Assembly: GCA_963722255.1 (NCBI GenBank)
Contig: CAVRJO010000002.1
Span: 232,169 to 296,168 of the forward strand
DNA: 64,000 nt
Direction of reading: 5' to 3'
Source of the DNA: Candidatus Babeliales bacterium
Lineage (GTDB): Bacteria > Babelota > Babeliae > Babelales > JANWKD01
Part shown: positions 1-34,494 of the stretch, piece by piece
Layout: each line of letters opens with the position of its first letter
Position numbering within the stretch: position 1 is the stretch's first letter
Program-made: the position numbers and the translations under genes
The notes under the pieces: generated by a model
What the model saw: only the letters and a program-made list of their open reading frames with translations
What the model was told of the DNA's origin: nothing
The model's database searches: none

Positions 1-245
1 TCAGCATTAGCTAAGCAACCATTCTTGACCATAGCAATAATAAGACTATCAGAAACAAGTTTACCAGATTTTATAGCAAAATCTATCTGTTTGCCTATTT
101 CTGTTTGTTCAGCAATATGCTTACGGCATAAATTACCAGTTGAAATTGATTCCAACCAAACTTTTTTACACATAGATGGGATAATGTACCCTTTACCTGA
201 CCCTGGAGGCCCAATAAAAATATAAATATCTTTTTGTGAGTTCAA
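1..245 (-). CDS. adk: adenylate kinase, 5' part only (gene continues beyond window start)
   Basis: Minus-strand reading from TTG 245-243 gives NSQKDIYIFIGPPGSGKG (P-loop) ...ISTGNLCRKHIAEQTEIGKQIDFAIKSGKLVSDSLII. The TTG overlaps the secY stop (TTGA). Usual position downstream of secY. Confidence 0.75.
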   Translation of the reverse strand, partial: MNSQKDIYIFIGPPGSGKGYIIPSMCKKVWLESISTGNLCRKHIAEQTEIGKQIDFAIKSGKLVSDSLIIAMVKNGCLANA

Positions 246-1567
246 CGTACAGCCCTACTTTTTAATCTTCCTGTTGTTAAAAAGCCTTCATAACGATGCT
301 CAATTAAATATGATTCTATCTGAGCAGATGTTTCTAAGAGCAACACCAACCACAATCAACAGTGAAGTTCCACCTAAATAAAATGGCATTCTGAACAAAT
401 GCATTTAAAATATTAGGTGCTAAGGACAAACAATGCTAAATAAATTGCACCAACTAAACCAATACGAGTTAAAATATAATTAAAAAATTCAGCAGTTTTC
501 TTACCTGGACGAATTCCCGGAATAAAGCCACCACTTTTTTTAATATTTTCTGCCAAGTTCATCAGGATTAAATACCAAAGCAGTATAAAAGAATGAGAAA
601 AAGATAATCAACACAAATTCAAAACATTAAATAAAATTCCCTGTGGTGCAAACCATTCAGCAAATCTGTCTAAAAATTTCAACTTTTTGCAGATAAGCAT
701 AGCCTGCAATAATCAAAGGAATATTCAAAACTGAAGAAGCAAAAATTACAGGCATAACACCAGCAGTATTAATTTTAAAAGGAATATAAGTACTTTGACC
801 ACCATAAACACGTTGACCAACAACTCGACGAGCATATTGAACAGGAATTTTACGTTCACCTTTTTCAAGAAAAACAATACATGCCGTAATCATAATAAAA
901 ATAGCTAAAATAAGTAATGCTTGCCAAAGTTCTAAGCTTCCAGCATCAATTAATGCTTATTGTTTTAATAACATACTCAGGAAATCTAGCAACAATACCT
1001 GCAAAAATAATCATTGAACTACCATTACCAATACCAAAAATGAAATCTGCTCACCAAGCCACATAACAAACATAGAACCAACCGTTAATGAGAGAATAAA
1101 CATAATTCTGAAAGCCCCATCCTGGAGTTAAAGACTAATCCTTGACTTTCAAGATAGACCGCATAACCAAAACTATACATAATACTCAAACCAGAACGTT
1201 AAATACCGTGTATATTGATTGATTATTTTACGACCATATTCACCTTCTTTAAGCAAGTTGCTCAAGATAAGGAACTGTCATACTAAACATTTGCATCATA
1301 ATAGATGCAGTAATATAAGGGCATAATACCTAAAGCAAAAAGGTACATGAAGCTAATGCACCGCCAGAAAAAATATCAAGATAACCTAAAAAACCACCCA
1401 AGACTCGTTGCTCGCTTCATATGTTCACCAAGCAAAGGAATATTAACCCCTATAACAGGAATAAACGTACCAAGACGATAAACAATCAGAACACCCAAGG
1501 TAAAAAATACTTTTCTTCTTAATTCTGGAATAAAAAATATATTTTTAAAATTTTTTAACAAAACCAC
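242..1567 (-). pseudogene. secY: preprotein translocase SecY, reading frame broken repeatedly as sequenced
   Basis: Track fragments 1376..1567 (IPELRRKVFFTLGVLIVYRLGTFIPV) and 657..893 (RKIPVQYARRVVGQRVYGGQSTYIPFKINTAGVMPVIFASS). FALGIMPYITASIIMQ is readable only after frame changes near 1319-1340. The 1326-nt span equals the expected SecY length. Confidence 0.8.
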
Positions 1568-1570
1568 TAC

Positions 1571-2032
1571 TTTAACTCTCCTTAGTTAAATGAACTTCTC
1601 CACCACAACTTTCAATCTTTTCTGTTGCACTGTTTACTAAAAGCATCTGCCATAAACAATAAATTTTTTAGTAAAGTTCACCACTTCCCAAAATTTTAAT
1701 TATGGCATTACTTTATACCTTTTACAAAGTCCTTTTTCAACTAAAAGTTCTTTAGTAATATCTGCACCATCTTCAAAAACTCGATCTAAATCATCCAAAT
1801 TAACAATCGCATATTCTGTTGCAAAAGCTTATTATTAAATCCTCGTTTTGGTAATACGACGAGCTAAAGGCATTTGACCTCCTTCAAAACCAAAGTCGAA
1901 CTTTTAACACCACCTGAACGAGCTTTTTGTCCTTTATGCCCCTTACCAGAGGTACCACCTCGGCTACCACCACGACCAATTCTTTTTCTTTTTTTACACA
2001 GAGGGGTTAAATTATTAAGCTGTTGTACCATG
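1571..2032 (-). pseudogene. rplO: 50S ribosomal protein L15, frameshifted as sequenced
   Basis: From ATG 2032: MVQQLNNLTPLCKKRKRIGRGGSRGGTSGKGHKGQKARSGG, then the frame is lost. Ends IESCGGEVHLTKES* at 1571, directly upstream of the secY GTG. Confidence 0.75.
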
Positions 2033-2041
2033 AGCATCCCT

Positions 2042-2533
2042 TTATAATTTGTTCAATTGTTTTACCTCTGAAATGAGCCAATATCCTGAACTGTTCTAAT
2101 TTTGCAATGCATTCAATGTTGCTTTAACCACGTTTTGATCTGATTAGATAGATCCAAGAGATTTTGCCAAAATATCTTTAACTCCTAATGCTTCCATAAC
2201 TGCACGAACTGCACCACCAGCAATAACTCCCGTACCTTTATATGCAGAACGAATAACAACTCGGCTTGCACCATGATGCCCATGAACATTATAAGGAATA
2301 GTTGTACCACGTAACGGATACAGCAATCATGCTCTTGCGAGCTTTTATTGTTGCTTTAGCAATAGCAGAAGAAACTTCTTTGCTTTTACCAACCCAATAC
2401 CAATATTACCTTGTTGATCACCAGAAACAACAAAAGCTGAAAAAGAAAAACTTTTACCACCTTTAGTAACTTTTGTTACACGACTTACACTGACAACAGA
2501 ATCTATAAATTCTTTTTCTTTGTTTTCAGCCAT
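2042..2533 (-). pseudogene. rpsE: 30S ribosomal protein S5, frameshifted as sequenced
   Basis: Track ORFs 2345..2533 (VTKVTKGGKSFSFSAFVVSGDQQGNIGIGL) and 2144..2326 ([54 protein letters not shown]). They are joined by 1-nt homopolymer changes near 2389 and 2315. Confidence 0.8.
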
Positions 2534-2559
2534 TTATATCCTATCTAAATATCGTACAA

Positions 2560-2927
2560 TTAAACTTGTAATCCACCTTCTCTTAATCCTTCAGCAAGAT
2601 TTTACTCTTCCATGAAATAAGATAACTGTCCACGATCAAAAACAACTCTTTTAATGCCTTTTTCTAAGCTCGTTTTGCCAATTCAAGACCAACAGCATTA
2701 GCAATATCTGTCTTATTACCAGAAAGATTCTTAAGTTCTAATGAAGAACAACTTACCAATGGTTTGATCCTTAGCATCATCAATAAGTTGGGCATAAATA
2801 TGATTTAGACTTCTAAAAACAGAAACTCTTGGTAATTTACCAGGATTTTAATCTACTTCTAACACGCAATTGACGTCGTTTTAGTTCTTTGTTTAATACC
2901 TTTTTTAATGACACGTTAAATACTCAT
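2560..2927 (-). pseudogene. rplR: 50S ribosomal protein L18, frameshifted as sequenced
   Basis: Minus-strand pieces [31 protein letters not shown] and LAEGLREGGLQV* lie in different frames. Position between rplF and rpsE. Confidence 0.7.
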
Positions 2928-2930
2928 CTC

Positions 2931-3474
2931 TTATGCAGATTTTGTTTTACCAGCTTTACGCAATATAACTTCACCTTCTATATTTAATACCTGTACCTTT
3001 ATAAGGCTCTGGCGGTCTTAATGCTCGAATTTTACTAGCAAACAAAACCAACTGCTTCTTTATCCATACCTTTTACTGTAATAAGTTGGCCTGTTTTATC
3101 AATTTCAATCGTAATCCCTTGAGGCAATATCAAAATCAATTTTATGACTAAACCAAAGAAAAAACAATTTTACTTCCGGTAGAATGCAGCTTTAAACCCA
3201 ATCCATTAATTGATAACTTTTTGCTCAAAACCGTCTGAAACACCTTTAAGTTCATTAGCCAACAAAGCTCGATGCAAACCCCATAACACATTGTTTTCTC
3301 GAGCGTTCTATCTTCACATACAATTTTAATTGTTGATCGGTTAGTTCTGCTTTAAGAACAGCTGGAAGAACATGGACTCTGAACCCTTTTTCCCTTTGTA
3401 AGCTGTACTTCTTGTCCTTTAATCTCAATTTGTACATTATTACGATCTATTGGTTTTCTTCCAATCTTTGACAT
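2931..3474 (-). pseudogene. rplF: 50S ribosomal protein L6, frameshifted as sequenced
   Basis: Starts MSKIGRKPIDRNNVQIEIKGQEVQLTKGK. Track ORF 3255..3437 lies within it. Ends PYKGTGIKY / GEVILRKAGKTKSA* in shifted frames. Confidence 0.7.
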
Positions 3475-3483
3475 ACTTTACCT

Positions 3484-3879
3484 TTACCAAACTGAACAAA
3501 TTACTTCGCCACCAACAGACAATTCTTTAGCTTTTTTATCAGTCATAATCCCTTTATTTGTAGATAATACGGAAATCCCTAATTCACCAATAACCGGAAA
3601 TAGTCTACCTGATTTGCATAAATACGTCTCCCTGGTTTACTTATTCTTGTAATTTCATGAATAACAGATTCACCATCAACATATTTAAAAAAACTTTAAT
3701 CATTTTTTTTGATGTATCTTCTTCCATCACAGTAAAACTCTTTAATAAAGCCTTCTTCTTTCAAAATTTTTGCAATTTCTAACTTAATCTATAGAATAAG
3801 GAACTACTACTGAACGTTTAGATACCATTAATCCATTGCGAATAATTGTTAAAAAATCTCCAATAGCATCAATTGACAT
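3484..3879 (-). pseudogene. rpsH: 30S ribosomal protein S8, frameshifted as sequenced
   Basis: Starts MSIDAIGDFLTIIRNGLMVSKRSVVVPYS, then a premature stop. The C-terminus GEVICSVW* is readable in another frame. 396-nt span. Confidence 0.75.
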
Positions 3880-3896
3880 TATTTCCTTCCTACAAT

Positions 3897-4082
3897 TTAC
3901 CAACTAGTTTTCTTAACACCAGGAAGAACACCTGCTAAAGCAAGTTTTCTAAAACAAAGACGACACATCATAAAAAATCTCATATAACCACGCGGTCTTC
4001 CACAAAGCTTACATCTATTTCTTTGTCTAACAGAAAATTTTGGTGTTCTATTAGCTTTTTCAATCATTGCTTTTCTTGCCAT
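3897..4082 (-). CDS. rpsN: 30S ribosomal protein S14, short Zn-ribbon (type Z) form
   Basis: Intact 61-aa [64 protein letters not shown] with CxxC...CxxC. Confidence 0.9.
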
Positions 4083-4093
4083 TGCTCTACCTT

Positions 4094-4646
4094 CTATTTC
4101 TTAATTTTTTTAAACGGCATACCAAATCCTTTCAGCAATTCTAGTGCATAAGTCATCTTTGCCAGCAGTAGTATGAATGGTAATATTTAACCCATGTACA
4201 TTTTCAAAAGAACTTTTTTCTGCTTCAGGGAAAATAGTCCATTCTTTTATTCCAAGATTATAGTTTCCACGACCATCAATCTTTAAAGATACCCTTGAAA
4301 ATCTCTGACATTAGGCAATGACAAATTAATGAGCTTATCAAGAAAATTATACATGTTATCACTACGTAAGGTAACCATAACACCAATAGGCATGCCTTCA
4401 CGAATCTTAAAACCTGCAATAGATTTCTTGGCAATAGTTCTCACTGGTGCTTGACCAGCAATTTTTTCAATAACATCAGCAACAATTTTTAAAACTTTAC
4501 TATCAGCAACAGCTTCTTTCACCCCAACATTAAGAACAATTTTTGAAAGTTTGGGAACTTCCATAATATTATTTAATTCCCAATTTTGTTTTTAATTCAG
4601 GACGAATTTTTTTATTATATAGTTCTTCTAAACGAGATTTTTCCAT
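4094..4646 (-). pseudogene. rplE: 50S ribosomal protein L5, frameshifted as sequenced
   Basis: [25 protein letters not shown], then track ORF 4283..4564 ([19 protein letters not shown]...[19 protein letters not shown]). Tail DGRGNYNLGIKEWTIFPE and [10 protein letters not shown] lie in other frames. Confidence 0.8.
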
Positions 4647-4662
4647 TAAATATCCTTAATAA

Positions 4663-4982
4663 TCAAAAAACTTCTTCACAACGATTACACATACGTGCTT
4701 TTTTATCCTTCAACCACTGTTGCATTTAAACGACATGGTTTTTTACAAGAAGCACATATGGCATTACTTTAGAAACATCAATAATATCTTTCTTCTTTTT
4801 TAATAGCAGAAACTTCACCTTGTTTACGTGCTTTTGCATGCCGTAGCAACAAGACCAAGTCCTTGAATTCTTACTTTATTAACTTTACCTTTTTTTGATA
4901 AAACATCAATAACCTAACCTTGTTTATCTTTTTCTTTTCCTGAGATAACCACAACCGTATCATTTTTTTTTATACGCATCAT
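4663..4982 (-). pseudogene. rplX: 50S ribosomal protein L24 (Zn-ribbon C-terminus), in-frame TAG plus frameshifts as sequenced
   Basis: MMRIKKNDTVVVISGKEKDKQG*VIDVLSKKGKVNKVRIQGL (KOW) with TAG at 4914..4916. C-terminal PICASCKKPCRLN...RMCNRCEEVF* resembles the Thermus-type CxxC...CxxC L24 (recalled from memory). Confidence 0.7.
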
Positions 4983-4998
4983 GTCATAAGCAAACCTC

Positions 4999-5390
4999 TT
5001 ATAAAACTTCTGGTGCTAAAGAAAAATTTTTGAATAGCCTATCTCGTAATTCACGGCAACAGGACCAAAAATACGTGTTCCAATCGGTTCTGCTTCACCC
5101 TTTTATCATTTTTTCAAAATCACAGCAGCATTTTCACCAAAACGAATATAGCTGCCATCTTCCGTCGATATTCTTTTACTGTTCTCACAATAACCGCATC
5201 TAACAACTTCTTTCTTTTTTACCATTCCACCCGGAATTGCATCTTTTAACTGAAACAATTAACTATATCACCAATGTATGCAAAACGTTTTCCGGTACTA
5301 CCTACCATTTGAATTCATTACACGAATTACCATTACTTTTATGCACCTGAATTATCTGCAACTTCTACAACATGATTGTTCTTGTATCAT
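4999..5390 (-). pseudogene. rplN: 50S ribosomal protein L14, frameshifted as sequenced
   Basis: RBS AGGAGA, then MIQEQS. Pieces VEVADNSGA, KVMVIRV, GKRFAYIGDIV, GSYIRFGENAAVI and PIGTRIFGPVA lie in alternating frames. Confidence 0.75.
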
Positions 5391-5402
5391 AATTATCTCC
5401 TC

Positions 5403-5677
5403 TTATCCTTGCACGATGCTTAACGACGCGAGATAAGTACATATATTTTGTTTTTGAAACAGGACGACCTTCATAAAACTTCAACAATATCCCCAATTTT
5501 AGCTTGTTCATTTTCATCATGAACTTTATATTTTTTAATAGAATTCACAACTTTATGCAATAATGGCTCTTTGAAAGTTCGCTTCACTTTAACAACTATT
5601 GTTTTATCCATTTTATCAGAAACAACTTCTCCGACAATCGGTTTTTTAATTTTATCTGCTTTTTGATTAGCAACCAT
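5403..5677 (-). pseudogene. rpsQ: 30S ribosomal protein S17, 3' end frameshifted as sequenced (3' boundary uncertain)
   Basis: Track ORF 5471..5677 ([67 protein letters not shown]). Continuation EGRPVSKTKYMYLSRVVK lies in the next frame. Confidence 0.75.
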
Positions 5678-5687
5678 TTGATTACCT

Positions 5688-5897
5688 TCATATTATCGGA
5701 CATTTATTCTTTTGATTCAAATACGTTAATGCTCGCGCAATATTTTTCTTTAATTTTGTTAAATTGAGAATAATCTTTAACATGCGTTGTAGCAACATTA
5801 AGTTTCAAACCAAAAAGTTCTTGTCTATAATGCTTCAACTTTTTCTTTGAAGTTGTTCTATGCTCATAGTCTTTAATTCATTTTTTTCTTTATTCAT
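5688..5897 (-). pseudogene. rpmC: 50S ribosomal protein L29, frameshifted as sequenced
   Basis: MNKEKNELKTMSIEQLQ, then RQELFGLKLNVATTHVKDYSQFNKIK and KNIARALTYLNQKNK in shifted frames. The ATG overlaps the rplP stop. Confidence 0.65.
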
Positions 5898-6309
5898 GCT
5901 CTTCTGCTCTCTTTACAATTTTAGTTTTCATCGGAAGCTTATAAGCTGCAAGTCGAAGAACATCTTTAGCTTCTTGTTCAGCTAAGCCCTTCAATTTCAC
6001 AAATAACACGACCACGTTTTACAACAGCAACCCAAAATTCAGGATTACCTTTACCTTTACCCATACGAGTTTCAGCAGGTTTTTTGGTAACTGGTTTATC
6101 AGGAAAAACACGTAAAAACAATTTGCCAACTTTTTTCAATTACGTGAAATAGTAACACGCATTGCTTCAATTTGCTGAGCAGTAAGCCATGCAGGTTCAA
6201 CTGCTTGTAAGCCCATAATCACCAAACGCAACATCACGAGCACCTTTAGAAAGACCTTTACGGTTCCTCTTTGAACTTTTCTATATTTAGTTTTTTTTGG
6301 CATTAACAT
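5890..6309 (-). pseudogene. rplP: 50S ribosomal protein L16, frameshifted as sequenced
   Basis: Pieces [53 protein letters not shown] and [32 protein letters not shown] are spread over three frames. Confidence 0.8.
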
Positions 6310-6967
6310 GATTTATATTCTTTCAACAATATTAAACTAATTGGATATTCACCTTTACAAATCCATACTTTAACACCAATAATACCATAGGTAGTTATTG
6401 CTTCAGCAAATCCATAATCAATATCTGAACGTAAGGTATGCAAAGGAATTGAACCAACACGATACCATTCATCACGTGCAATTTCTGCACCACCTAAACG
6501 TCCTGCACAGCAAATTTTAACCCCTTTAGCACCACTACGAATAGATGAAGCAGCTGCTCGTTTCATAGCTTTTTTAAAACTTGCTCGTTTTTCTAACTGA
6601 TCTGCAATATTTTTAGCAACTAATGTAGCATCTAGTTCAGGACTTTTAACTTCTTGAACAGAAACTTCAACATTTGCACGATTTAAGAAGTTTAGCTAAT
6701 TCTTTACGCAAGGTATCAATTTCTTGTCCTTTTTTACCAATAACAACACCAGGACGAGCAGAATGAATAATAACTTCGAACATTTTCACCAGCTTTTTCA
6801 ATTTCAATACGTAGCAATTTCAGCAGTTTCAAGAACTTCTTCTAAAATTTTCTAATTTTTAAATCTTCAAGAACCTGCATTCCATACGATTTTCTTGCAA
6901 ACCAACGAGCATCCCAATCGCGATAAACACCCAAACGAAATCCTATTGGATTAACCTTTTGTCCCAC
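6303..6967 (-). pseudogene. rpsC: 30S ribosomal protein S3, frameshifted as sequenced
   Basis: GTG start, [24 protein letters not shown]. Track ORF 6303..6566 ([57 protein letters not shown]). Confidence 0.8.
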
Positions 6968-6978
6968 ACTATACCTCT

Positions 6979-7316
6979 TTAGCTTTCTAAAGTTACATCT
7001 TAATATGACTAAATCGTTTTCGTTAAAACAGTTGGCCGACCCATAGCACCTGGTTTAAAATACCGAAATATAGGACCTTGATCAACACGAAAATCTTTAA
7101 TAACAAGATTTTCAGTTCAATACATTACTTATATTCTTTGCATTTGCAACAGCAGACTTCAAGCACCTTTTCTATAGGCTTCTGACACGTTGTGACCGAA
7201 TAAGTTGCAAGCCAATTAAAAGCATACTGAGCATTTTTTCCCCGTAATAACATCAACCAATGGTCGTAATTTATAAGGCGAATAATGTATATATTTGCTT
7301 TAGCTATAAATTGCAT
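6979..7316 (-). pseudogene. rplV: 50S ribosomal protein L22, frameshifted as sequenced
   Basis: Track ORF 7125..7316 starts MQFIAKA...[40 protein letters not shown] lies in another frame. Confidence 0.75.
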
Positions 7317-7347
7317 TTTTATCCTTAATTATGTATATTAAGCAGGA

Positions 7348-7632
7348 CTAGTTCCTTCGCAACCCAGCTTTTCGTTGACCACTATGCAATCTAAATGTTC
7401 TGGTTGGAGCAAATTCACCAAGATAATGTCCAACCATATTTTCTGTAACAAACACTGGAATAAATTTTTTCCCATTATGTACAGCAATAGTCAACCCAAC
7501 AAAATCAGGTATAACCATACTTCCGCGAGACCATGTTTTAATAACTTCTCTTTTACCACTTGCTTTTAAACGTTCAACTTTTTCTAAGAAGCGATTCAGC
7601 AACAAAAGGACCTTTTTTGTTGATCTTGCCAT
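7348..7632 (-). CDS. rpsS: 30S ribosomal protein S19
   Basis: Intact 94-aa ORF with ...[50 protein letters not shown]. Confidence 0.9.
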
Positions 7633-7652
7633 ATTTTATTTATCTTTCTCAA

Positions 7653-8483
7653 TCACATTATTTTCTTCGTTTTCAAAATCAATGGATTTTTACGCTTACT
7701 TGTTCGTGTATCCTTTAGCACCTTTACCCCATGGACTTTACTGGATGAGAACCAGATTTAGAACGACCTTCACCACCACCATGTGGGTGATCAACTGGGT
7801 TCATAGCCATACCACGAACTGTTGGTCTAATTCCCATATGACGCGATACTACCTGCTTTACCAATACAATATTCTTATAATCAGCATTACCCAAGAGTAC
7901 CGACGGTAGCCCAACAATCCAAGGTGTAACAATTCGAATTTCACCAGAAGGCATTTTTAAAGTTGCATACTCATCTGTTTTAGCCATAATCTGAACTGAA
8001 GTTCCAGCACTACGAGCAAATGTACCACCTGAATTCTGGACTAATTTCAACATTATGAACCGTAAAACCAACTGGAATATTACGCAAAGGCAAACGAATT
8101 TCCGACTTTAGCTTCAGCATCAGCTGCATGCCAATATCGTATTACCAACTTTTAAACCTTCAGGCATCAAAATATATCTTTTAGCACCATTTTTAAAAAC
8201 AACTAACGCAATATGAACATTACGATTTGGATCATATTCAACAGCAGTAACTTTTCCTTCAACATCTCGATCAAGTACGTTAAAATCAATCATGCGATAT
8301 TTTCTTGCAGCACCACCACCACGATGACGACGTTGTAATACGTCCATAAGCATTTCGTCCGCCCGTTTTTTTCAACCCGATAACAAGAGATTTTTCAGGA
8401 CTTTTTTTTGTTAAGTCACTTGAATCGATAAATGTTTGAAAACGTAAAGAAGCACTTCTTGGTTTTCTACTAATAATTGCCAT
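7653..8483 (-). pseudogene. rplB: 50S ribosomal protein L2, frameshifted as sequenced
   Basis: Track ORFs 8286..8483 (MAIISRKPRSASLRFQTF...GGRNAYGRITT), 8120..8353 (RRHRGGGAARKYRMIDF...) and 7724..8071 (...GMAMNPVDHPHGGGEGRSKSG). 831-nt span. Confidence 0.85.
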
Positions 8484-8842
8484 TATATATCCTTAAAATC
8501 ACTCTCGTGTTGTTTCGGTATCATTGGAAGCAGCATTGTTCCCATAACTAATCCTCCTGATACTAACTGTGCTAGTGTATCAAAAGATTGAGAATCTTTC
8601 AATGTGACAATTGCTTGCTTAATTAACGGACCTTATGATTTCACTCTTTTAAAAACTACGATTCTTACCTTTACGATCGTTAATATTAACGTTTTTAACT
8701 TTTACATTAAAAAGCTTTTCAAGGGCTTCCTTAACTAAAGCTTTATTTGCTTCAGGATGCAACTTCAAAAGTAATTTTTTGCTAATTTATTAATACGATC
8801 TGAAGCTTTTTCAGTAACAACAGGGCGTCGTATAATAGTCAT
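8483..8842 (-). pseudogene. rplW: 50S ribosomal protein L23, frameshifted as sequenced (alternative start 8857)
   Basis: MTIIRRPVVTEKASDRINKLAKNY, then KQAIVTLKDSQSFD in another frame. Its stop overlaps the rplB ATG. Confidence 0.65.
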
Positions 8843-8847
8843 AAATT

Positions 8848-9509
8848 TTAAAGCCATTTTGAAACCATTTCTTTAAAAACATGGTAAATCTTTTTGCAAA
8901 ACAATCCAATGCTTACCATTCATCAAATCAAATGCATTTAGCTTCATCAAATAATAACAACCTGGACATTAGGAATATTTATAAAAGAAGAATACACTAA
9001 AACATCATCCAAAGAAACAAATAGAACAACCTTTGTTATGAGCTAAATTAGCTTGTTTTAAAAGGTTATATGCATATGAAGTTTTAGGAGCATTATCCAT
9101 CGAAATGCCCAAGGCAAAGATAAATCTTTCCCTTATCCAAATAATCACATACAGATATATTAAAAATACCACTGTCTTAGCTTTTTTGATACTTTTAAGC
9201 ATTCTTACACGTGGTTGTGGTCCAAAAATCACACCACCACCTCGCCATAACGGAGATCGAGCTGACCCTGCACGTGCTCTACCTGTACCTTTTTGCTTCC
9301 AAGGTTTTCTGTTAGAGAAACTAACATCAGATCTGCCTTTACAGCCAACAGTTCCTTGACGCCAATTTTGCAAAAGCTGACGAATATAAATAGCAAACAC
9401 CAGCTGAAGCAATTTCTCTTTGTTGAATCTCAAATCCTAAGTCATTGCGTGTTAAAGCTGCACCGTTTAAGTCGCTTGAGTATTATTTGTTATTTTTCTG
9501 AGCAGACAT
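8848..9509 (-). pseudogene. rplD: 50S ribosomal protein L4, frameshifted as sequenced
   Basis: Track ORF 9005..9433 contains [36 protein letters not shown] (L4 signature). ATG at 9509 just after the rplC stop. Confidence 0.75.
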
Positions 9510-9516
9510 CGTTTAC

Positions 9517-10143
9517 CTACACTTTTCGCATGAATACTAATGAACCAGATCTGCCAGGAACAGATCCCTTAATCAAAACAACATGTGCTTCCGGTTCAAT
9601 TCTAATACCTTAAGATTTCGCATCACTCGTTGTACATCACCCATATGACCAGGCAGTTTCTTACCCTTAATAACACGTACCTTGAGATCTCATAAAACTC
9701 AATGATCCTGGAATTCTACCAAAGCGTGGACCGTGACTTGCGCGACCACCTGTGAAATCCATGACGTTTAACAACACCTTGAAATCCATGTCCCTTAGTT
9801 GTTCCAAACACATCAACAGTTATCACCAATTTGTAAACAGAGAACAAAATCAACTGGTTGCCCAACTACTGCATCTTTCGATATTTTCATGAGTATCAAT
9901 TTCTCTTAATGCATAAAAATAATGCATTTGGCTTTTTTAACCCAATCATTTGAAAATTGCTTACCTGCATATTTTTTTCTGACAAGACCAATTTGCACAG
10001 CATCATAGCCATCTTTTTCTTTAGATTTAAATTGAGTAACAACCCAATTATTCAACATCAATAACAGTAACAGGAACAACTTTATCGTTTTCAGAAAAAA
10101 CTTGAGTCATTCCGATTTTTTTACCCAAAATACCTTTTAACAT
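9517..10143 (-). pseudogene. rplC: 50S ribosomal protein L3, frameshifted as sequenced
   Basis: [46 protein letters not shown] and GGRASHGPRFGRIPGSL lie in different frames. Confidence 0.8.
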
Positions 10144-10161
10144 TGAAATACCTTTCTGATT

Positions 10162-10467
10162 CTATTTAATTTCTACATCAACACCAGATGATATATTCAA
10201 TTTCATAAGAGCGTCCATAGTTTGATCTGAAGGAGAAACAATATCCAAAATACGTTTATGCGTAGTCAACTCAAATTGCTCCCGTGATTTTTTATCAACA
10301 TGAGGTGATCTTAAAACAGTAAAGCATCGCTTTTTATTAGGCAAAGGAACAGGCCCCATAACTTCGGAGCCTGTTCTTTTTGCTGTCAAAACAATTTGTT
10401 TCACTGCTTTATCAAGCAATTGATGATCATACGATTTCAAAGTTAAGCGAATTTTTTGTTTTTTCAT
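10162..10467 (-). CDS. rpsJ: 30S ribosomal protein S10
   Basis: Intact 101-aa [69 protein letters not shown]... Confidence 0.9.
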
Positions 10468-11699
10468 TACAGTTCCATTAACCTATTTACTTTAATAATT
10501 TCAGTTACAACACCAGATCCAACAGTTCTACCACCTTCACGAATAGCAAAATGTAAATCTTTTTCCATTGCAATTGGTGCAATCAAATCAACAGTCAAGT
10601 CAACGTTATCACCAGGCATAACCATTTCACGTCCTCAGTCTAAAGTTACAATACCAGTAACGTCTGTTGTTCTGAAATAGAATTGCGGACGATAGCCATT
10701 AAAGAATGGACTATGACGTCCACCTTCATCTTTAGACAAGAATGTAAACTTCACATTTGAATTTTTTATGAGGGTTACAGTACCTGGTTTTGCAATAACC
10801 ATACCACGTTCAATATCTTCTTTTTTAACACCACGAAGAGAAGACCCAACGTTATCGCCAGCTTGACCTTCTTTAAGTTCTTTTTTAAACATTTCAACGC
10901 CGGTAACCGTTGTTTTGATGTTATTACCAAAACCAACAATTTCAACTTCTTCACCAACTTTAACTTTACCACGTTCAATACGACCAGTAGCAACAGTACC
11001 ACGTCCAGAAATAGAGAATACACCTTCAACTGCCATCAAGAATGGTTTATCAATTTCACGAATTGGTTCAGGAATATAGGTATCAACAGCTTCCATCAAT
11101 TTTATGAATAGCCTGGTTCACCAATTTCACTTTTATCGCCTTTTAATGCTTTAAGAGCTGAACCACGAATAAAAGGAATTTTATCACCAGGGAAATCATA
11201 TTTTGTTAAAAGATCTCTGATTTCTTCTTCAACCATATCCACCATTTCAGGGTCATCAACCATGTCAATTTTATTTAAGAAAGACAACAAATGAAGGAAC
11301 GCCAACATTTTTTGCAAGCAAGATATGTTCACGAGTTTGAGGCATAGCACCATCAGCTGCAGAAACAACCAAAATTGCACCATCCATTTGTGCTGCACCG
11401 GTGATCATGTTTTTTACATAGTCAGCGTGACCAGGACAGTCAACGTGCGCATAGTGACGTTTTTCTGTTTCATATTCAACGTGTGATGTAGCAATAGTAA
11501 TACCACGAGCTTTTTCTTCAGGCGCATTATCAATTTGATCATACGCTCTGGCTTGTGCCAAACCTTTTTCTGCTAATACTTTAGTAATAGCAGCGGTTAA
11601 CGTTGTTTTACCATGGTCAACGTGACCAATAGTACCAATATTAACATGTGGTTTTTTACGTTCAAAAATTTCTTTTGCCATTGTAATTTCTCCTAACAA
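10467..11699 (-). pseudogene. tuf: elongation factor Tu, frameshifts plus in-frame TGA as sequenced
   Basis: Track ORFs 11271..11699 ([10 protein letters not shown]...[26 protein letters not shown]), 11102..11398 and 10635..11099. Breaks at homopolymers near 11280, 11112 and 11100. TGA at 10635..10637, followed in-frame by [11 protein letters not shown]...[19 protein letters not shown]. Confidence 0.9.
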
Positions 11700-11731
11700 C
11701 CGTTTTACAATTAATTAAACACTATTTCTTT

Positions 11732-13797
11732 TCAACAATCTTCTTCTTGGACATTCTTTGGAACTTCTCTATAACACTCAAATTCCATAGAATAACTCGC
11801 ACGACCTTTAGTCATAGAACGTAATGCAGTTGCATAGCCAAGCATTTCCTCTAATGGTACTTCTGCAGCAATAACTTGAGCTGCCACCCTTTGCTTCCAT
11901 TCCCAAGATTCTTCCTCTTCGAGAGTTAAATCGCCCATCACATCACCCATATATTCATCAGGTGTATCAACTTCAACCTTCATAATAGGCTCTAAAAGAA
12001 CCGGAGATGCTTTTGACATACCAGCTTTAAATGCCATGGATGCCAGCAATTTTAAATGCCATTTCAGAAGAGTCGACATCATGATATGAACCATCTGTTA
12101 ATGTAACCTTTAACATCAACAACAGGATATCCACCCAAAACACCAGCTGTAAGTGCTTCTTTAATACCTTTTTCAATGCCGGGAATAAATTCTCTAGGAA
12201 TAGTACCACCAACAATTTTATCTTCAAAGATAAATCCTTTACCGCGTTCTAAAGGCTCAAGATTCAACCAAACATGTCCATATTGACCTTTACCACCAGA
12301 TTGCTTAATATATTTACCTTCAGATTCAACTGGCTTTTGAATAGTTTCTTTATAGGCAACTTGCAATTTACCTTGAGCAACTTCAACTTTATGTTCTCGC
12401 TTTAAGCGATCAACAACAATTTCAAGATGCAACTCACCCATTCCTGAAATAACTGTTTGAGCTGTTTCTTGATCATATGAGAATCTAAACGAAGGATCTT
12501 CTTGCATCATTTTTCGTAATGCAATCACCATTTTTTCATGGTCAGCCTTTATTTTTAGGCTCAATGGAAGTAGAAATAACTGGATGCAGGGATATCAATT
12601 GATTCAAGCAATAATGGATGACCTTCTTCAGCACAAGAGTATTTCCCGTAATAACATCTTTAATACCCACAACTGCAGCAATATCGCCCGCTTCAGCTGA
12701 TGCAATTTCTTCTCGCTTATTAGCATGCATCTTAACAAAACGGCTTACTCGTTCTTTATTGCCAGTACTTGCATTATAACATATGACCCAGATTTAACTT
12801 CTCCAGAATAAACACGAATAAAGGTAAGAACTCCAACAAAAGGATCTGTCATAATCTTAAATGCTAAAGCACAAAAAGGAGCTTTAGGATCAGCAGCTTC
12901 TCGTTTCTTCTTTATTTGTTTGAGGATTGATGCCTACAACAGGAGGAATATCAAGTGGCGAAGGCAAGATAATCAACAACACCATCAAGCATTAATTGAA
13001 CACCTTTATTTTTAAAAGCAGTTCCAGCAAAATGCCAATGCAATTTGACGTTTTAATCGTACCTTTACGCAATGCTGCTTTTATTTCTGGAATTGAAATT
13101 TCTTCTTCATTTAAATATTTTTCAGCTAAAACATCATCAAAATCGCAAGCTTTTTCAACAAGCTTATTACGTAAATCTTCTACTTGATCAACATATTCTG
13201 CAGGAACATCATGCCATGTAACAGCAATCCCTTGATCACCACCAAAAATTGCCATTTTGCGCGTCAACAAATCAATAATACCCGATAAAATTTTCTGATT
13301 CACCAACAGGAAGTTGCGCTGCAACAGCATTAACCTTCAATTTTTCATTGATATCATCTAACAACACGAAGATAATTACCACCAATACGATCAAGCTTAT
13401 TAACAAAAATAATTCTTGGAACACCATAACGATTTGCTTGGCGCCAAACCGTTTCAGATTGAGGCTGAACTCCGGCAACCCCACAAAAAACACCGACCAT
13501 CCCATCAAGCACACGCAAAGAACGACCCACTTCAATAGTAAAGTCTACGTGACCTGGCGTATCAATAATATTAATGGTAGTGTCTTTCCATTCACAAGTT
13601 GTTGCAGCAGATTGAATCGTAATACCACGCTCACGCTCTTGCTCCATCCAATCCATGACCGTTTCACCTTCATGAACTTCACCAATCTTATGCGTTACGC
13701 CGGTATAAAACAAAATTCGTTCTGTTACGGTGGTTTTACCTGCATCAATATGAGCAGCAATACCTATATTTCTTAATTTTTCGAGCTTTGAACTCAT
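11732..13797 (-). pseudogene. fusA: elongation factor G, frameshifted as sequenced
   Basis: Track ORFs 13354..13797 ([24 protein letters not shown]...[14 protein letters not shown]), 12992..13330, 12542..12730, 12079..12564 and 11732..12094 together tile EF-G domains I-V. Confidence 0.9.
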
Positions 13798-13811
13798 CAG
13801 ATTCCTTTATA

Positions 13812-14296
13812 TTACCATGCATAATGAGAGAATGCTCTGTTAGCTTCTGCCATTCTATGGACTTCAATTTTCTTTTTGATTGCGTTACCACGACCTTCAA
13901 CAGCTCGCTTAACTCATTTGCTAATCTCATGCCCATCGTTTTATCAGTTCTTGATTTTGCAGCATCGATCAACCAACGAATGGCAAGAGCACGCTGCTCT
14001 TTCAGGGCGAACTTCCATAGGTATCTGATACACACTACCACCTACACGTCGAGGACGAACTTCAACTGCTGGGATCAATTGCTCAAATGCTTTATAAAAT
14101 GCATTAAGGCCTTTATTTTGTATCTCCGCCATTTCTTTTTATTAGAACATCAATAGCTTCATACACAATTCTACGAGCAACATTTTTCTTACCACGCCAC
14201 ATAATTACATTAATAAGCTTTTGTACCAACTCTGATCCAAAACGCTCATCAGGCAGTAATTTCTCTTTTATAGCTGACAGCTTTACGCCTTGACAT
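13812..14296 (-). pseudogene. rpsG: 30S ribosomal protein S7, frameshifted as sequenced
   Basis: ATG at 14296 (MSRRKAV...). Track ORFs 13944..14132 ([27 protein letters not shown]) and 13745..14041 ([29 protein letters not shown]). Tail [13 protein letters not shown]. Confidence 0.85.
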
Positions 14297-14318
14297 AATT
14301 CAGTTCCTCAATTATTTT

Positions 14319-14699
14319 TTAGGATTTTTTTGGTTTTTTTGCACCATACAATGAACGACCTTGCTTTCTATTTTCAACACCAGCTGTATCCAAGGCTCCA
14401 CGAACAATATGATATTTTACACCTGGTAAATCTTTAACCTTTCCACCACGAACCAAAACCACAGAGTGCTCTTGCAAGTTATGACCTTCTCCTGGAATAT
14501 ACGCGGTCACTTCAGCTCCTGTTGAAAGTTTTACACGAGCTACTTTTCGAAGTGCTGAGTTTGGTTTTCTGGGGGTCATTGTTTTTACTTGCAAACATAC
14601 GCCACGAGCTTGAGGAGCACCTTTTAGGGCTGGACTCTTGGTTTTAAAAAGATGTTTTTTTGTGCGCCCTTTACGAGCAAGTTGTGTCACGGTAGGCAT
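14319..14699 (-). CDS. rpsL: 30S ribosomal protein S12
   Basis: Intact 126-aa [15 protein letters not shown]...[59 protein letters not shown]. Confidence 0.95.
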
Positions 14700-15010: not shown

Positions 15011-16171
15011 ATGTTTTCAGATCAACTTTTATCACTAGCACAAAGCCTATTTTTTATTATTATTGGAATAATGGGAATTGGATTCTTAATTGGATTCCAT
15101 GAATTTGGCCATTTTATTTTTTGTAAAATTTTTCACATAAGAACACCCTCATTTTCAATTGGAATGGGTCCACGTATTTTTAAAAAGAAAATAGGCGAAA
15201 CTGAATTTGCACTCTCACTCTTGCCCCTAGGCGGTTATGTCGAAATTGCCGGGGCGGCTGAAGTCGGGCAAGGCGAACAAAAGGAAGCCTACAGCACAGA
15301 TCAAAATTCATTTGCTTCTAAACCCTACTATCAAAAAATGCTTGTTATGGCAGGTGGCATAGTCTTTAATCTTATGTTTGCTTATGCAGCGCTTTCTTTC
15401 CTTTATTTTATTGGTATGCCAAAAACGTTGCTTTATCCCCTGCATGCATCTAACCAAATAAGTTCAATTGAACCCGAGACTCCTGCAGCTCACTCAAATC
15501 TTAAACCATTAGATAAAGTTTTAGAGATTGATAATCGTTCGGTCAATAATGCCGCCGATATAATAGGGATTATACATACTATTCCCAATAAAACAGTTCA
15601 TATGCTCATTGAACGGGATGGCAAACAGGAAGATATTTCACTTACCATAGGATCTCGAGAAATAAATAAGAAGGAACTGGGCTTTCTAGGTGTTGAATTT
15701 TCCATTCCTAAGTTTGGGTTTGTAGAGTCAATTAAAAATGGCATTCAAGCCACTAATTTCCTCATTAGCCACGTTGTAGGTGCATTCAAGAAGCTTTTCA
15801 CAGGCAAGGAGCTTGAAAACCTTGGTGGACCATTGATGGTAATTTCGCAAACAATAAAGGGAGCAGAAAAAGGTTTTAAAATATTTTTACTCCTTCTTGC
15901 TTTCATTAGCGTTAATTTAGCAATTTTCAATATCATTCCTTTACCTATTATGGATGGTGGCCAGGCCTTATTTTATACCATTGAAGCTATCTTAAGAAGA
16001 CCTCTTAATGAAAAAATACGTGAATATATTCATATTGGTACCTGGATCCTTCTTCTAGTACTTGTTGTCTACTTAAGCATCAAAGATGTCATAATGATTT
16101 TTGGCTTAAAAGAAATTATGAGCGCTACATCAACAAAAATTAAAGAATTAATCAGCATATTCTGGAAATAA
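15011..16171 (+). CDS. rseP: RIP/site-2 zinc metalloprotease (M50), RseP-like with one PDZ-like insert
   Basis: 386-aa ORF. HEFGHF (HExxH) lies in the first TM region, followed by a central soluble segment and a C-terminal NLAIFNIIPLPIMDGG motif. Confidence 0.85.
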   Translation: MFSDQLLSLAQSLFFIIIGIMGIGFLIGFHEFGHFIFCKIFHIRTPSFSIGMGPRIFKKKIGETEFALSLLPLGGYVEIAGAAEVGQGEQKEAYSTDQNSFASKPYYQKMLVMAGGIVFNLMFAYAALSFLYFIGMPKTLLYPLHASNQISSIEPETPAAHSNLKPLDKVLEIDNRSVNNAADIIGIIHTIPNKTVHMLIERDGKQEDISLTIGSREINKKELGFLGVEFSIPKFGFVESIKNGIQATNFLISHVVGAFKKLFTGKELENLGGPLMVISQTIKGAEKGFKIFLLLLAFISVNLAIFNIIPLPIMDGGQALFYTIEAILRRPLNEKIREYIHIGTWILLLVLVVYLSIKDVIMIFGLKEIMSATSTKIKELISIFWK

Positions 16172-16187
16172 TTATTTCACATAAATT

Positions 16188-16236
16188 AAAAAGCAAACAT
16201 CCTCAAAGTTGAATACTTTGAGGATGTTTGCTTTTT
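16188..16236. terminator. Perfect 21-bp hairpin flanked by A5/T5 (bidirectional Rho-independent terminator candidate)
   Basis: AAAAAGCAAACATCCTCAAAG-TTGAATA-CTTTGAGGATGTTTGCTTTTT, 17 nt after the rseP stop. Confidence 0.75.
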
Positions 16237-16238
16237 AA

Positions 16239-18128
16239 ATCGGGTAGGAGCGAGTGATTAACTCGCGTCCTCCCACACCACCGTACGTACCGTTCGGTAT
16301 ACGGCGGTTCATGTCGATACTTTCGCGAGCATCTCATAATATCTTTCAACAAGACTTACAAGCCCTTGCTCTCGCCAATAAGCGAGGCCGAGGGCTTTGT
16401 TTATTTGTGGAGTATTTGCCAGCCGCCAGTATTTCTTGTCTGAGAATGCTATGCGTCCTGCCCATTTTCCTTCGATTCCTAGGTCTTTTAACTTTGCAAG
16501 CTTGGTTTTCCCTAACTTCCATTGTTTCAATAAACACATTCTCAATCTTCTGCGTATCCATTCGTCAAGTTCCTGGAGCACACTCTTTGTTTCGATAATA
16601 CCGAAATATCCAATCCATCCAATGAGATACTCATTGAGCTTCTTCAGTCGTTCTTTCATAGATATACCCCAATTGCGCTTCGTTAACTCGCGAATCTTCT
16701 CCTTAAACTTTATTCTGGTTTTGGGAGCGATTCGCAGCTTTACTTGCCAGCCAAAGGTGAATGAGAATCCTAGGAACTTTCTTCTCGATGGATAGTCTAT
16801 TGCACTCTTTTGTACATTTATATTGAGCTTCAATCGTTCTTGTAGAAACTTCATTATACTTGCATACACTCTTTGTCCCGCTCGCTTGCTTGCTACGTAG
16901 ATGTTGCAGTCATCGGCGTATCGAACAAAAGAGTGTCCTCTTTGTGTAAGTTCTTTATCAAGATCATTCAGTATGATATTTGATAGCAGGGGACTTATTG
17001 GGCCACCTTGCGGTGTCCCGTCCTCTGATCTCACATGACATCCATTGAGCATTACTCCCGATTGCAAGTATTTGCGGATAATTGCGTGTATGCGTTTATC
17101 TTCGACATGTTGTGCTATTTTCGACATCAGTATGTCGTGATTTACACGGTCAAAGAATTTCTCGAGATCGATATCCACCACAATTTTCTTTCCGTGTTGG
17201 ATATAGGTTTGGGCTTTATGCACAGCTTGCCGTGCACTTTTGCCTGGTCTAAATCCATAACTGAATTCTGAAAATGTAGCTTCAAATATTGGTGTCAAGA
17301 CTTGTTGGATTGCCTGTTGGATAAAGCGATCAAGTACCGTTGGAATTCCTAATTCACGCACTCCACCGTCTTGTTTCGGAATTTCGACTCGACGTACGGG
17401 AGCTGGTTTATAGGTTCCGTCAAGAAGCTCTTGTTTGATGCGATTCCAATGCTCATTCAGATATGGAAGCAGTTCATTGACCTGCATATTATCCACACCC
17501 GCCGAGCCTTTGTTTCTTTCCACTCGTTTGAGTGCCTTCTTGAGATTATCGTACTCTACCACTTTCTCCATCAGTTGATTATTATGATTTGCCAAGATAT
17601 GTTTGTTGATTTGTGTCATAAGTTTGCTCAGTACCTCATCAGGACCTGGTAGAATTCACTACCGCCTCTCAGTGATGGTTCGATTTTTTTTTTTCGATTT
17701 TCTACTTTCATTGCATTCTCGATGTACGTATCAATCATATCTTTATCGCTCATGTTCAGGCCTTCCCGATTTTTTTTTTCGGTACTATGCCATCTGCTGA
17801 CTTCTGTCCCTCAACCTCTATTTTCACAGAGGGTTGCCAACTTAGTCGGCGTGGAAACAGATCTCCCCGGGTAATTGCGCGCCCTTTCACCTCATCTACC
17901 TGCTCTATTTACTCTCGATAGTTTTGGCAACCATGGCTTTTGTCTTACTTGGCAGACTCATCCGCTATCGCTAGCCTCGCATAGAGTTCGTATACCTCAG
18001 GCCAAGGTTTTGCTGCCGGCTTCCTTCAGATTTCACCTCGCGATGAACACCCTTGCCTTAGGCTAATGACTTCGTTGCCTTCGTCATTCCGGACTTTCAC
18101 CGGTAGGTCGCGCCCATGCCGGGCGCAC
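16239..18128 (-). mobile_element. Group II intron, bacterial class C-like (about 1.89 kb)
   Basis: Minus-strand 5' end GTGCGCCCGGCATGGGCGCG at 18128. Domain V-like hairpin at 16310..16276 (GAACCGCCGTATACCGAACGGTACGTACGGTGGTG). Domain VI-like stem with bulged A at 16274..16242, 3' ...CCCGAT. RT/maturase ORF inside. Located 10 nt behind a terminator stem. Confidence 0.85.
16309..17619 (-). CDS. ltrA: group II intron-encoded reverse transcriptase/maturase (no endonuclease domain recognised)
   Basis: 436-aa ORF with an RT block (GSAGVDNMQV...) and the YADD motif (FVRYADDCNIYV). Maturase-like tail LIGWIGYFGI...IRRRLRMCLLKQWK. Its stop abuts domain V. Confidence 0.9.
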   Translation of the reverse strand: MTQINKHILANHNNQLMEKVVEYDNLKKALKRVERNKGSAGVDNMQVNELLPYLNEHWNRIKQELLDGTYKPAPVRRVEIPKQDGGVRELGIPTVLDRFIQQAIQQVLTPIFEATFSEFSYGFRPGKSARQAVHKAQTYIQHGKKIVVDIDLEKFFDRVNHDILMSKIAQHVEDKRIHAIIRKYLQSGVMLNGCHVRSEDGTPQGGPISPLLSNIILNDLDKELTQRGHSFVRYADDCNIYVASKRAGQRVYASIMKFLQERLKLNINVQKSAIDYPSRRKFLGFSFTFGWQVKLRIAPKTRIKFKEKIRELTKRNWGISMKERLKKLNEYLIGWIGYFGIIETKSVLQELDEWIRRRLRMCLLKQWKLGKTKLAKLKDLGIEGKWAGRIAFSDKKYWRLANTPQINKALGLAYWREQGLVSLVERYYEMLAKVST

Positions 18129-18129
18129 C

Positions 18130-18158
18130 AAAAAAAAGGCGAAGAAAGATTCTTCGCC
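18130..18158 (-). terminator. Rho-independent terminator of rplM
   Basis: Minus strand GGCGAAGAA-TCT-TTCTTCGCC followed by T8. The intron 5' end follows 2 nt after the T-run. Confidence 0.8.
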
Positions 18159-18183
18159 CTAAATTTACTGACCAGATTAAAAG

Positions 18184-23448: not shown

Positions 23449-23480
23449 CAATAAAAATAAAGGCTTGCATAAAATATAAT

Positions 23481-24392: not shown

Positions 24393-24412
24393 AATGCAAG
24401 CCTTGGACTATT

Positions 24413-31111: not shown

Positions 31112-31205
31112 ATAGTTTCTTTTTTGACAACATTCCCAAGATTTTGATAAAGTTATGCCCAATTATTAGTGTGCAACAAAAAAAATTTTGGGAGCGTTTG
31201 TTTAT

Positions 31206-32672: not shown

Positions 32673-32849
32673 AGGTAATAAATAATAGCATAAAATAGGT
32701 AAAACCACAGAATTTAAGACCTACGGAAATTAATCAGTTTTGCTTCATAAACATTATTTACAAATAGGGCTTTTGCTTCTTTATTACTATTACTATATAC
32801 TAAAAGGAAAATAGTAGTTTTAATAACCTTATACAGAGGCAACCTTTCT

Positions 32850-34481: not shown

Positions 34482-34494
34482 AAATAGGATATTT

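Follow-up and report, generated by a model that had tools for sequence, protein, structure and literature searches.

A fragmented str-S10-spc operon in a Babeliales contig: very likely a low-quality, strain-chimeric piece of metagenome assembly

The left end of the window (the whole 64 kb stretch of DNA analysed here) holds an str-S10-spc operon on the minus strand. Its genes were located by frameshift-aware protein-to-DNA alignment, with the 26 proteins encoded intact on the short-read contig L092 as queries. The noisy stretch as a whole rests on this alignment together with DNA alignments to L004/L088, L092 and L094, and rpsL on its exact protein in other assemblies.

1-14296, minus strand, noisy stretch, adk' to rpsG
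10-245, minus strand, adk'
245-1567, minus strand, secY
1575-2031, minus strand, rplO
2018-2533, minus strand, rpsE
2563-2914, minus strand, rplR
2934-3474, minus strand, rplF
3487-3879, minus strand, rpsH
3900-4082, minus strand, rpsN
4097-4646, minus strand, rplE
4666-4988, minus strand, rplX
5002-5390, minus strand, rplN
5407-5677, minus strand, rpsQ
5696-5897, minus strand, rpmC
5893-6309, minus strand, rplP
6336-6967, minus strand, rpsC
6972-7316, minus strand, rplV
7349-7632, minus strand, rpsS
7662-8483, minus strand, rplB
8502-8857, minus strand, rplW
8851-9509, minus strand, rplD
9520-10143, minus strand, rplC
10165-10473, minus strand, rpsJ
10491-11681, minus strand, tuf
11725-13797, minus strand, fusA
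13815-14296, minus strand, rpsG
14319-14699, minus strand, rpsL, intact, 126 aa, at the switch point between two alleles
4914-4916, minus strand, in-frame TAG, rplX codon 25 (alignment)
6993-6995, minus strand, in-frame stop, rplV codon 106 (alignment)
8633-8635, minus strand, in-frame stop, rplW codon 74 (alignment)
10635-10637, minus strand, in-frame TGA, tuf codon 348 (alignment)
14254-14495, minus strand, transition zone between alleles (comparison with a long-read contig and L003)

Between adk' and rpsG (1-14296) the alignment finds at least 137 frameshifts (at least 102 of +1 and at least 35 of -1, extending from 14254 to 29 with a mean spacing of 105 nt) and four in-frame stops, against three lesions in the remaining 49.7 kb of the window. 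Frameshift density is thus about 10 per kb in the 14 kb block versus about 0.06 per kb elsewhere on the same contig. Only rpsL, rpsJ and rpsN are free of frameshifts, the other 23 of the 26 genes being hit, and ORFs of at least 150 aa cover 6.7% of positions 1-14300 compared with 78.8% of the rest. As the noisy stretch touches the left edge of the window, 14.3 kb is its visible part only. Rfam and tRNA scans of the stretch returned nothing bearing on the fragmentation.

These results bear out much of the first-pass annotation, made from the sequence alone: the gene order and the span of each gene, the fragmented ORFs of the first 14,300 nt, the open rpsL, the breaks in secY (about 1319-1324) and rpsE (2315 and 2389-2395), which the alignment places as frameshifts, and the stops in rplX and tuf, to which those in rplW and rplV are now added. 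Its phrase "near-perfect peptide conservation", on the other hand, was too strong, EF-Tu and SecY being 90% and 89% identical to relatives. Both proteins of contig_118075 (ENA ERZ25039473; L004/L088), an independent long-read contig, reach 96% identity with the same proteins of L092, and the SecY of other relatives is 94-98% identical to that of contig_118075. The sequence beyond 15 kb, described as clean, is nearly so, with three isolated exceptions.

20967-20974, minus strand, M24 aminopeptidase glitch, loss of a C and gain of a G at a distance of 7 nt, creating a TAG
24754-24761, minus strand, MurC frameshift in a T8 run of the plus strand (A8 in the coding sense)
49293-49298, plus strand, frameshift at an A6 run in a UvrA-like ABC ATPase

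The first truncates the aminopeptidase (PLQVGDV becomes PLK*GDV), and the short-read contigs L005 and L006 are intact there. In MurC, A9 instead of A8 would restore ...KRKKKKLTVVFEPHRY..., while the third lesion splits the ATPase into ORFs 47699-49303 and 49383-50312. Outside the noisy stretch, the residual errors at A/T runs are of the long-read type.

Inside it, the spectrum of lesions is of another kind. Relative to the intact allele, 82 of the 86 indels are single-nucleotide events (57 insertions and 25 deletions) and the other four are of 3 nt. The first-pass annotation had read the individual breaks as length changes in short homopolymers, a claim that fails: only 16 of the 57 insertions (28%) extend a run, against 42-45% by chance, and the three tuf sites that it had listed are non-homopolymer insertions (plus strand C at 11097, T at 11114 and G at 11279). 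Run-associated deletions number 12 of 25, with 51% expected by chance, and 54 of the 82 single-base indels lie outside any run. Counted over the full operon, 143 columns are insertions and 49 are deletions, a ratio of about 3:1, and all four bases are involved in both. Placement is random, as judged by the Poisson-like spacing (mean 104.6, SD 105.9), the spread over genes and the distribution of the excess substitutions over codon positions. Indels and excess substitutions occur at about 1:2, with a ts:tv below 1. Indel columns make up 1.2% of tuf, 1.4% of fusA, 2.3% of rplD and 2.7% of rplW; cross-mapped reads from distant taxa were rejected as the main cause because lesions are no denser in the most conserved genes.

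Independent assemblies place an intact operon at this very locus. From 14.5 to 20.1 kb the long-read contig_118075 and the window agree at about 99.9%. Over 14.3-20.1 kb they are separated by 4 mismatches and 3 indels; across 8.2-14.3 kb the count rises to about 450 mismatches and 86 indel events, and there contig_118075 encodes full-length rpsG, fusA, tuf, rpsJ, rplC and rplD. L090 and L091, both short-read contigs, match this intact L088 version at 100.000% and the window at about 89.8%; L090 comes from sample ERR10755947, in which two further contigs (L003 and L006) match the window flank at 99.9%. In a sister species, the short-read contig L092 (48.8 kb) has all 26 genes intact in the same synteny, with no operon frameshift, and the JGI contig L094 requires 5 gap openings against L088 and 80 against the window. 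With L089 and L174, which are also intact at the locus, the accurate assemblies of the same bacterium carry an intact operon, and the roughly 140 frameshifts are therefore assembly errors.

Long-read-style relatives, on the other hand, show operon frameshifts of their own: 28 in contig_118075, about 43 in L008 and about 59 in L009. The latter two, related GTDB species representatives, are Microflora Danica MAGs, which were assembled with metaFlye from nanopore reads only and given a single round of Medaka (PMC12313526). Noisy patches thus occur in three other long-read-style assemblies, at differing positions, and never in short-read ones. Even the nearest GTDB representatives reach just 60% identity in L3, and they are noisy themselves.

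The noisy stretch also differs in allele from its flank. From 14496 to about 16267, past an M50 protease gene (15.0-16.2 kb), the window is exactly identical to L003 and L088; its last departures from both the long-read contig and the short-read L003 fall at 14494-14495, in rpsL, and the first indel at 14254, in rpsG. Identity to L088 drops abruptly at this point, from 99.9% right of 14.5 kb to about 92% left of it. The second allele, which we call W-op, diverges from allele A (the intact L088 version) by about 6-9%, mainly at third codon positions, and superimposed on it are about 2.5-3% of codon-position-independent substitutions and about 1.3% of indels. Substitutions in fusA number 104, 18 and 31 at codon positions 3, 2 and 1. 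In a four-way alignment the window has 93, 53 and 113 unique substitutions at codon positions 1, 2 and 3 and allele A 18, 7 and 74, so that the window combines a normal third-position divergence with a position-independent excess. In this alignment, unique indel columns number 72 in the window versus 2, 2 and 3 in the others, and the window ts:tv is 116:148. Unique third-position changes between the window and allele A are symmetric (32 versus 32).

A noisy patch of contig_118075, in which A-allele and W-op variants are interleaved, decisively separates the allele from its lesions. Where this patch departs from the clean short-read contigs L089 and L174, 21 of 28 and 11 of 37 of its substitutions recur in the window, about one being expected by chance, but its indels do so in only 0 of 7 and at most 1 of about 9 cases. 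Across the whole operon, 192 indel columns are found only in the window, 36 only in L088 and 8 in both. The lesions are not inherited with the allele: that substitutions are shared and indels are not makes the allele real and leaves each assembly with frameshifts of its own. As judged from third-position bias, symmetry and variants common to another assembly's patch, W-op is a genuine allele, and the contig, whose noisy stretch is allelically foreign to its flank, is for that reason a chimera of two co-occurring sister populations. Exact look-ups of the unbroken S14 and S10 of the stretch matched no record, no member of 17 protein clusters was closer to the window than to allele A, and a JGI metagenome scan for an accurate W-op copy returned only the more distant relatives L094 and L095. 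Because no accurate (short-read) W-op contig was found, we only infer that W-op is intact.

Taken globally, positions 1-14.3 kb of the window are very likely a low-quality, strain-chimeric piece of metagenome assembly, and very probably a long-read one. To the right of about 14.5 kb the contig follows the consensus of population A, which is well supported. Within rpsL/rpsG, a region of near-identity between two co-occurring sister populations, it switches to the operon of the second population; as this conserved operon behaves like a near-repeat shared by the strains, the assembly path probably crossed there. The W-op stretch would be poorly supported, or built from a mixed pile-up. Its consensus errors of a few percent combined (about 2.5-3% substitutions and about 1.3% single-base indels) break every reading frame. 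The organism's own operon is normal and intact. Collapsed alleles are known to yield artefactual frameshifts in consensus assemblies (PMC8445201). The first-pass preference for a poor consensus or patched stretch is supported in this form, given that assemblies with the same flank are intact and the frameshifts are private to each assembly; the locally poor consensus stands, homopolymer slips give way to random single-base indels and substitutions, and chimerism is added.

Two observations run against an artefact. The usual nanopore bias favours deletions, and the excess here is of insertions, by 3:1. Also, polishing failed to bring the stretch onto the dominant allele.

The alternative that best survives, although very unlikely, is that a redundant str-S10-spc copy, duplicated or from a sister lineage, was recently inactivated and is decaying while an intact copy works elsewhere. 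The underlying allele is real, symmetric with allele A in its third-position divergence and present in two assemblies; the window is only 64 kb of the genome; and a gene content rich in ankyrin and BTB domains may point to life in association with a host, where decay of genes is frequent. The broken operon, however, occupies the exact locus, with a 99.9% identical flank, where contig_118075 is intact, and its lesions did not travel with the allele, as the near-absence of shared indels shows. Bacterial pseudogenes show deletion bias, broad indel sizes and slippage at runs. None of these is seen here, 82 of 86 indels being of 1 nt with an insertion bias of 57:25 and no homopolymer association, and the indel to excess-substitution ratio of about 1:2 and ts:tv below 1 also argue against decay, as do the similar patches elsewhere in three other long-read-style assemblies (two of them documented as nanopore-only) and in none of the short-read ones. 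Slimmer still is the chance that a real, recently inactivated second copy, or a xenologous replacement of the whole str-S10-spc operon, was put by the assembler where the functional copy belongs. An uncultured, deep-branching and possibly host-associated bacterium would then have a pseudogene of an essential operon that is unusual in its size and odd in its bias towards insertions.

Plain homopolymer-length error, as known from 454, Ion Torrent or nanopore data, affecting the correct allele and free of chimerism, is extremely unlikely. It would suit two of the three isolated lesions beyond 15 kb, which lie in A/T runs, and some operon lesions within short runs, but not the 54 of 82 single-base indels off runs, nor insertions that extend runs below chance. 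Neither does it account for the roughly 7% of substitutions against the own population's allele, whose third-position concentration and partial sharing with another assembly mark them as real allelic differences. Recoding, in which mass programmed frameshifting, transcriptional slippage or insertion/deletion RNA editing would restore the frames, has a negligible probability and is effectively refuted: conserved peptide does resume in another frame past each break, its sole support, but shift sites are absent in relatives (including the same allele in another assembly), most sites have no slippery motif or homopolymer, let alone a conserved one, shifts of +1 and -1 involve all four bases rather than one edit type at lineage-conserved sites, four in-frame stops and excess amino-acid replacements in EF-Tu and SecY come on top, and the DNA of relatives encodes intact genes.

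The preferred reading, an assembly artefact with a strain switch, resembles the spurious pseudogenes of long-read assemblies (Kastor PMC12007338; Homopolish PMC8011154; nanopore-only MAGs PMC12313526), where single-base indels or premature stops in conserved genes vary between assemblies and are missing from short-read assemblies of the same organism. It differs in that about 10 frameshifts per kb are packed in one block, are not homopolymer-bound and coincide with an allele switch. The collapsed T. brucei assembly (PMC8445201) is also alike, one sequence standing for two related alleles and yielding a mosaic or foreign allele with artefactual indels. That case is diploid, whereas here a metagenome with sister populations is affected in its most conserved operon only, and the role of assembler and polisher is inferred.

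Pseudogene decay in Mycobacterium leprae and Rickettsia likewise leaves many frameshifts and stops in recognisable genes. Decay in reductive genomes is deletion-biased, varied in indel sizes and common to related genomes, and it spares essential single-copy operons; none of these traits holds for the noisy stretch. The fragmentation of the operon is no biological feature and is biologically immaterial, but it is a warning about data quality. The affected block holds ribosomal proteins and elongation factors that underlie marker-gene phylogeny and completeness estimates, and the defect is also present in two GTDB species-representative MAGs of this little-known lineage (L008 and L009) and in a further public long-read metagenome contig. 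Automated annotation would report dozens of pseudogenes in the stretch, and marker placement, completeness scores and claims of pseudogenisation or recoding for such MAGs would be misled. The case further shows that long-read metagenome contigs can pass from one co-occurring strain to another at conserved operons.

A decayed paralogue of the operon was also considered for the upstream part of L004. This was rejected, as its nucleotide identity of about 65% in tuf marks it as the operon of another organism, and contig_118075 is therefore chimeric as well.

Within positions 1 to ~14300 of the window (~34% G+C), the minus-strand open reading frames are fragments of 40–160 aa only, and beyond 15 kb frames reach 1629 aa; frames of 150 aa or longer make up 6.7% of the first stretch versus 78.8% of the remainder. 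Using a frameshift-aware dynamic programme, we aligned to the window the 26 proteins of L092, a sister-species contig of 48.8 kb built from short reads, in which 26 of 26 genes are intact and syntenic with the window. The str-S10-spc gene order read by the first-pass annotation holds, with normal gene spans, as do the in-frame stops it had pointed out (TAG 4914–4916 and TGA 10635–10637). Between 14254 and 29 the alignment contains at least 102 frameshifts of +1 and at least 35 of −1, besides four in-frame stops, leaving only rpsL, rpsJ and rpsN unbroken. The spacing between frameshifts is Poisson-like (mean 104.6 nt, SD 105.9), the noise extends to the window's left edge, and lesion density is ~9.6 per kb in the operon versus ~0.06 per kb in the rest of the window.

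The flagged stretch is not a real biological feature; we are highly confident that it is a strain-chimeric, probably poorly supported consensus, on the grounds that the locus is intact elsewhere, that the allele switches at rpsL/rpsG, and that the lesions fall at random and are assembly-private. A poor consensus or patched assembly had been the explanation preferred at first pass, and it is supported here with corrected details.

Related contigs were retrieved by exact-protein look-ups with the intact neighbouring genes. The 165 kb contig_118075 of ENA ERZ25039473 (L004/L088) shares the window's flank, with 4 mismatches and 3 indels over 14.3–20.1 kb versus ~450 mismatches and 86 indel events over 8.2–14.3 kb, where it encodes full-length S7, EF-G (687 aa), EF-Tu (396 aa), S10, L3 and L4. 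Two Logan contigs from short reads, L090 and L091, agree with this intact version at 100.000% identity, against ~89.8% with the window; L090 comes from sample ERR10755947, also the source of L003 and L006, short-read contigs matching the window flank at 99.9%. The JGI contig L094 opens 5 gaps against L088 versus 80 against the window. At the boundary, the window, L088 and L003 are the same from 14496 to ~16267, L003 and L088 concur against the window at 14494–14495 (rpsL), and the first indel lies at 14254, in rpsG. Because rpsL and rpsG are almost identical between the two alleles, an assembly path could readily have crossed between populations there.

Mismatches with the intact allele cluster at third codon positions (in fusA, 104, 18 and 31 at positions 3, 2 and 1), and third-position changes unique to one sequence are balanced (32 each in the window and in L004, with L001 as outgroup). 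This concentration and symmetry show that the window's operon, W-op, is a genuine sister-population allele, ~6–9% diverged. An excess sits atop this divergence, as seen in a four-way alignment with gap-adjacent columns left out for substitution counts.

Unique substitutions at codon positions 1/2/3, four-way alignment
Window: 93/53/113
Intact allele (allele A, L088): 18/7/74
L092: 36/23/202
L094: 46/23/191

Unique indel columns number 72 in the window and 2, 2 and 3 in the other three sequences, and window-unique changes have a transition:transversion ratio of 116:148. The window-specific excess thus amounts to roughly 2.5–3% position-independent substitutions and ~1.3% indels. In protein comparisons the window sits on a long branch, with a SecY ~89% identical to that of each relative, and SecY of the other relatives is 94–98% identical to that of contig_118075.

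Contig_118075 carries a noisy patch of its own, with 28 frameshifts limited to L088 11549–17607 (rplW to rpsE) and clean sequence on both sides. Short-read contigs of its strain, L089 and L174, coincide with it as far as the patch (L089 with 0 differences over 9608–11549) and stay intact across the patch itself. Where L088 departs from clean short-read contigs, the window has the same substituted base at 21 of 28 sites in L088 12246–13196 and at 11 of 37 in 15050–17959, against a chance expectation of ~1. Of the patch indels, the window has 0 of the 7 from the first interval and no more than 1 of ~9 from the second; across the operon, 192 indel columns are window-only, 36 L088-only and 8 shared. 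Substitutions shared without the indels show that W-op is real, being found in two assemblies, and that the frameshifts are private to each. The first-pass annotation had proposed asking whether independent reads reproduce the indels; in the nearest equivalent, a second assembly rather than reads, they were not reproduced, and the artefact reading survives.

A real decaying duplicate of the operon is improbable. The broken copy occupies the same locus as the intact one, its lesions do not travel with the allele, indels are numerous relative to substitutions, and the patches occur only in long-read-style assemblies, at a different place in each. The indels, moreover, are nearly all of 1 nt (82 of 86), biased to insertion (57 insertions to 25 deletions) and unlinked to runs, a spectrum that looks like noise. 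Insertions extend runs in 28% of cases versus 42–45% by chance, and deletions lie in runs in 48% versus 51%, so the earlier description of the breaks as homopolymer changes fails; its three tuf sites are non-homopolymer insertions. Pure homopolymer error is accordingly still less probable, with most indels outside runs and a stretch allelically foreign to its own flank. Recoding or RNA editing can be practically dismissed, as the sites are not conserved, slippery motifs are absent, shifts have both signs and involve each of the four bases, and there are stops and surplus amino-acid replacements as well.

For the chimeric consensus, the conserved operon would have behaved as a near-repeat shared by co-occurring sister populations; the path of the contig may have strayed into reads of the rarer population or into a mixed pile-up, and polishing would have been unable to repair the result. 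Artefactual frameshifts are known to arise from collapsed alleles (PMC8445201).

The nearest GTDB representatives are two 'uncultured bacterium' Microflora Danica MAGs, only 60% identical in L3; the nearest named relatives by L3 are Opitutales (~47%). These two MAGs are nanopore-only metaFlye assemblies with one Medaka polishing round (PMC12313526). Both, each a GTDB species representative within the same deep lineage as the window, carry frameshifts in the same operon with intact flanking genes: ~43 in L008 (CAVXAV010000002.1, MFD02579.bin.2.17) and ~59 in L009 (CAVTVH010000001.1, MFD04967.bin.2.36). Their marker-gene phylogeny and completeness estimates may be affected, and the sole value of the present case is as a warning on conserved marker operons in long-read MAGs, GTDB representatives included.

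Outside the flagged stretch three further lesions stand alone; they are of the type usual in long-read data, and two of them lie in A/T runs.

Lesions in the rest of the window
20967–20974: −C/+G pair giving TAG in the M24 aminopeptidase gene, intact in two short-read contigs
~24754–24761: MurC frameshift, 8-nt A/T run
49293–49298: split UvrA-like ATPase gene, A6 run

The related Logan contig L005 also has a MurC frameshift, nearby but at a different place (T run after ...LTVV). Contig_118075 is itself chimeric: in L004 1–8550, an inverted and frameshifted S10/str operon that belongs to a quite different organism (tuf ~65% identical in nucleotides) is joined at the equivalent of window 20090, inside a Na+/H+ antiporter gene.

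Elsewhere the window encodes several proteins with ankyrin repeats, and one of 800 aa that weakly matches BTB/POZ and beta-propeller domains (38091–40061, 50483–52885, 54556–55308, 56891–57598, 57622–58374); such eukaryote-like domains and the ~34% G+C hint that this uncultured lineage may be host-associated. Pfam gives no match at E ≤ 1e-3 for the 1629-aa frame (40248–45137). At 31188–36159, three full-length paralogues of glycoside hydrolase family 1 (494, 543 and 554 aa) stand in a row. Mobile or defence-type content (22914–24420, 23886–24323, 45241–46532, 63142–63954) comprises a ~1.5 kb segment that contains a transposase fragment (HTH_Tnp_4) and is replaced by ~0.5 kb in L005, an AbiEii-type toxin gene with a 197-aa frame without Pfam match ahead of it, and an IS4/5-family transposase. 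A group II intron separates the M50 protease gene from rplM.

Group II intron features
~16171–18208: intron
16309–17619, minus strand: intact 436-aa RT-maturase (RVT_1 and GIIM)
17759–17836: Rfam RF01998
17876–18047: Rfam RF02001

Contig_118075 and Logan contig L007 carry the same intron; L001 and L092, both from sister species, are without it and have ~115–160 bp between the M50 protease gene and rplM.
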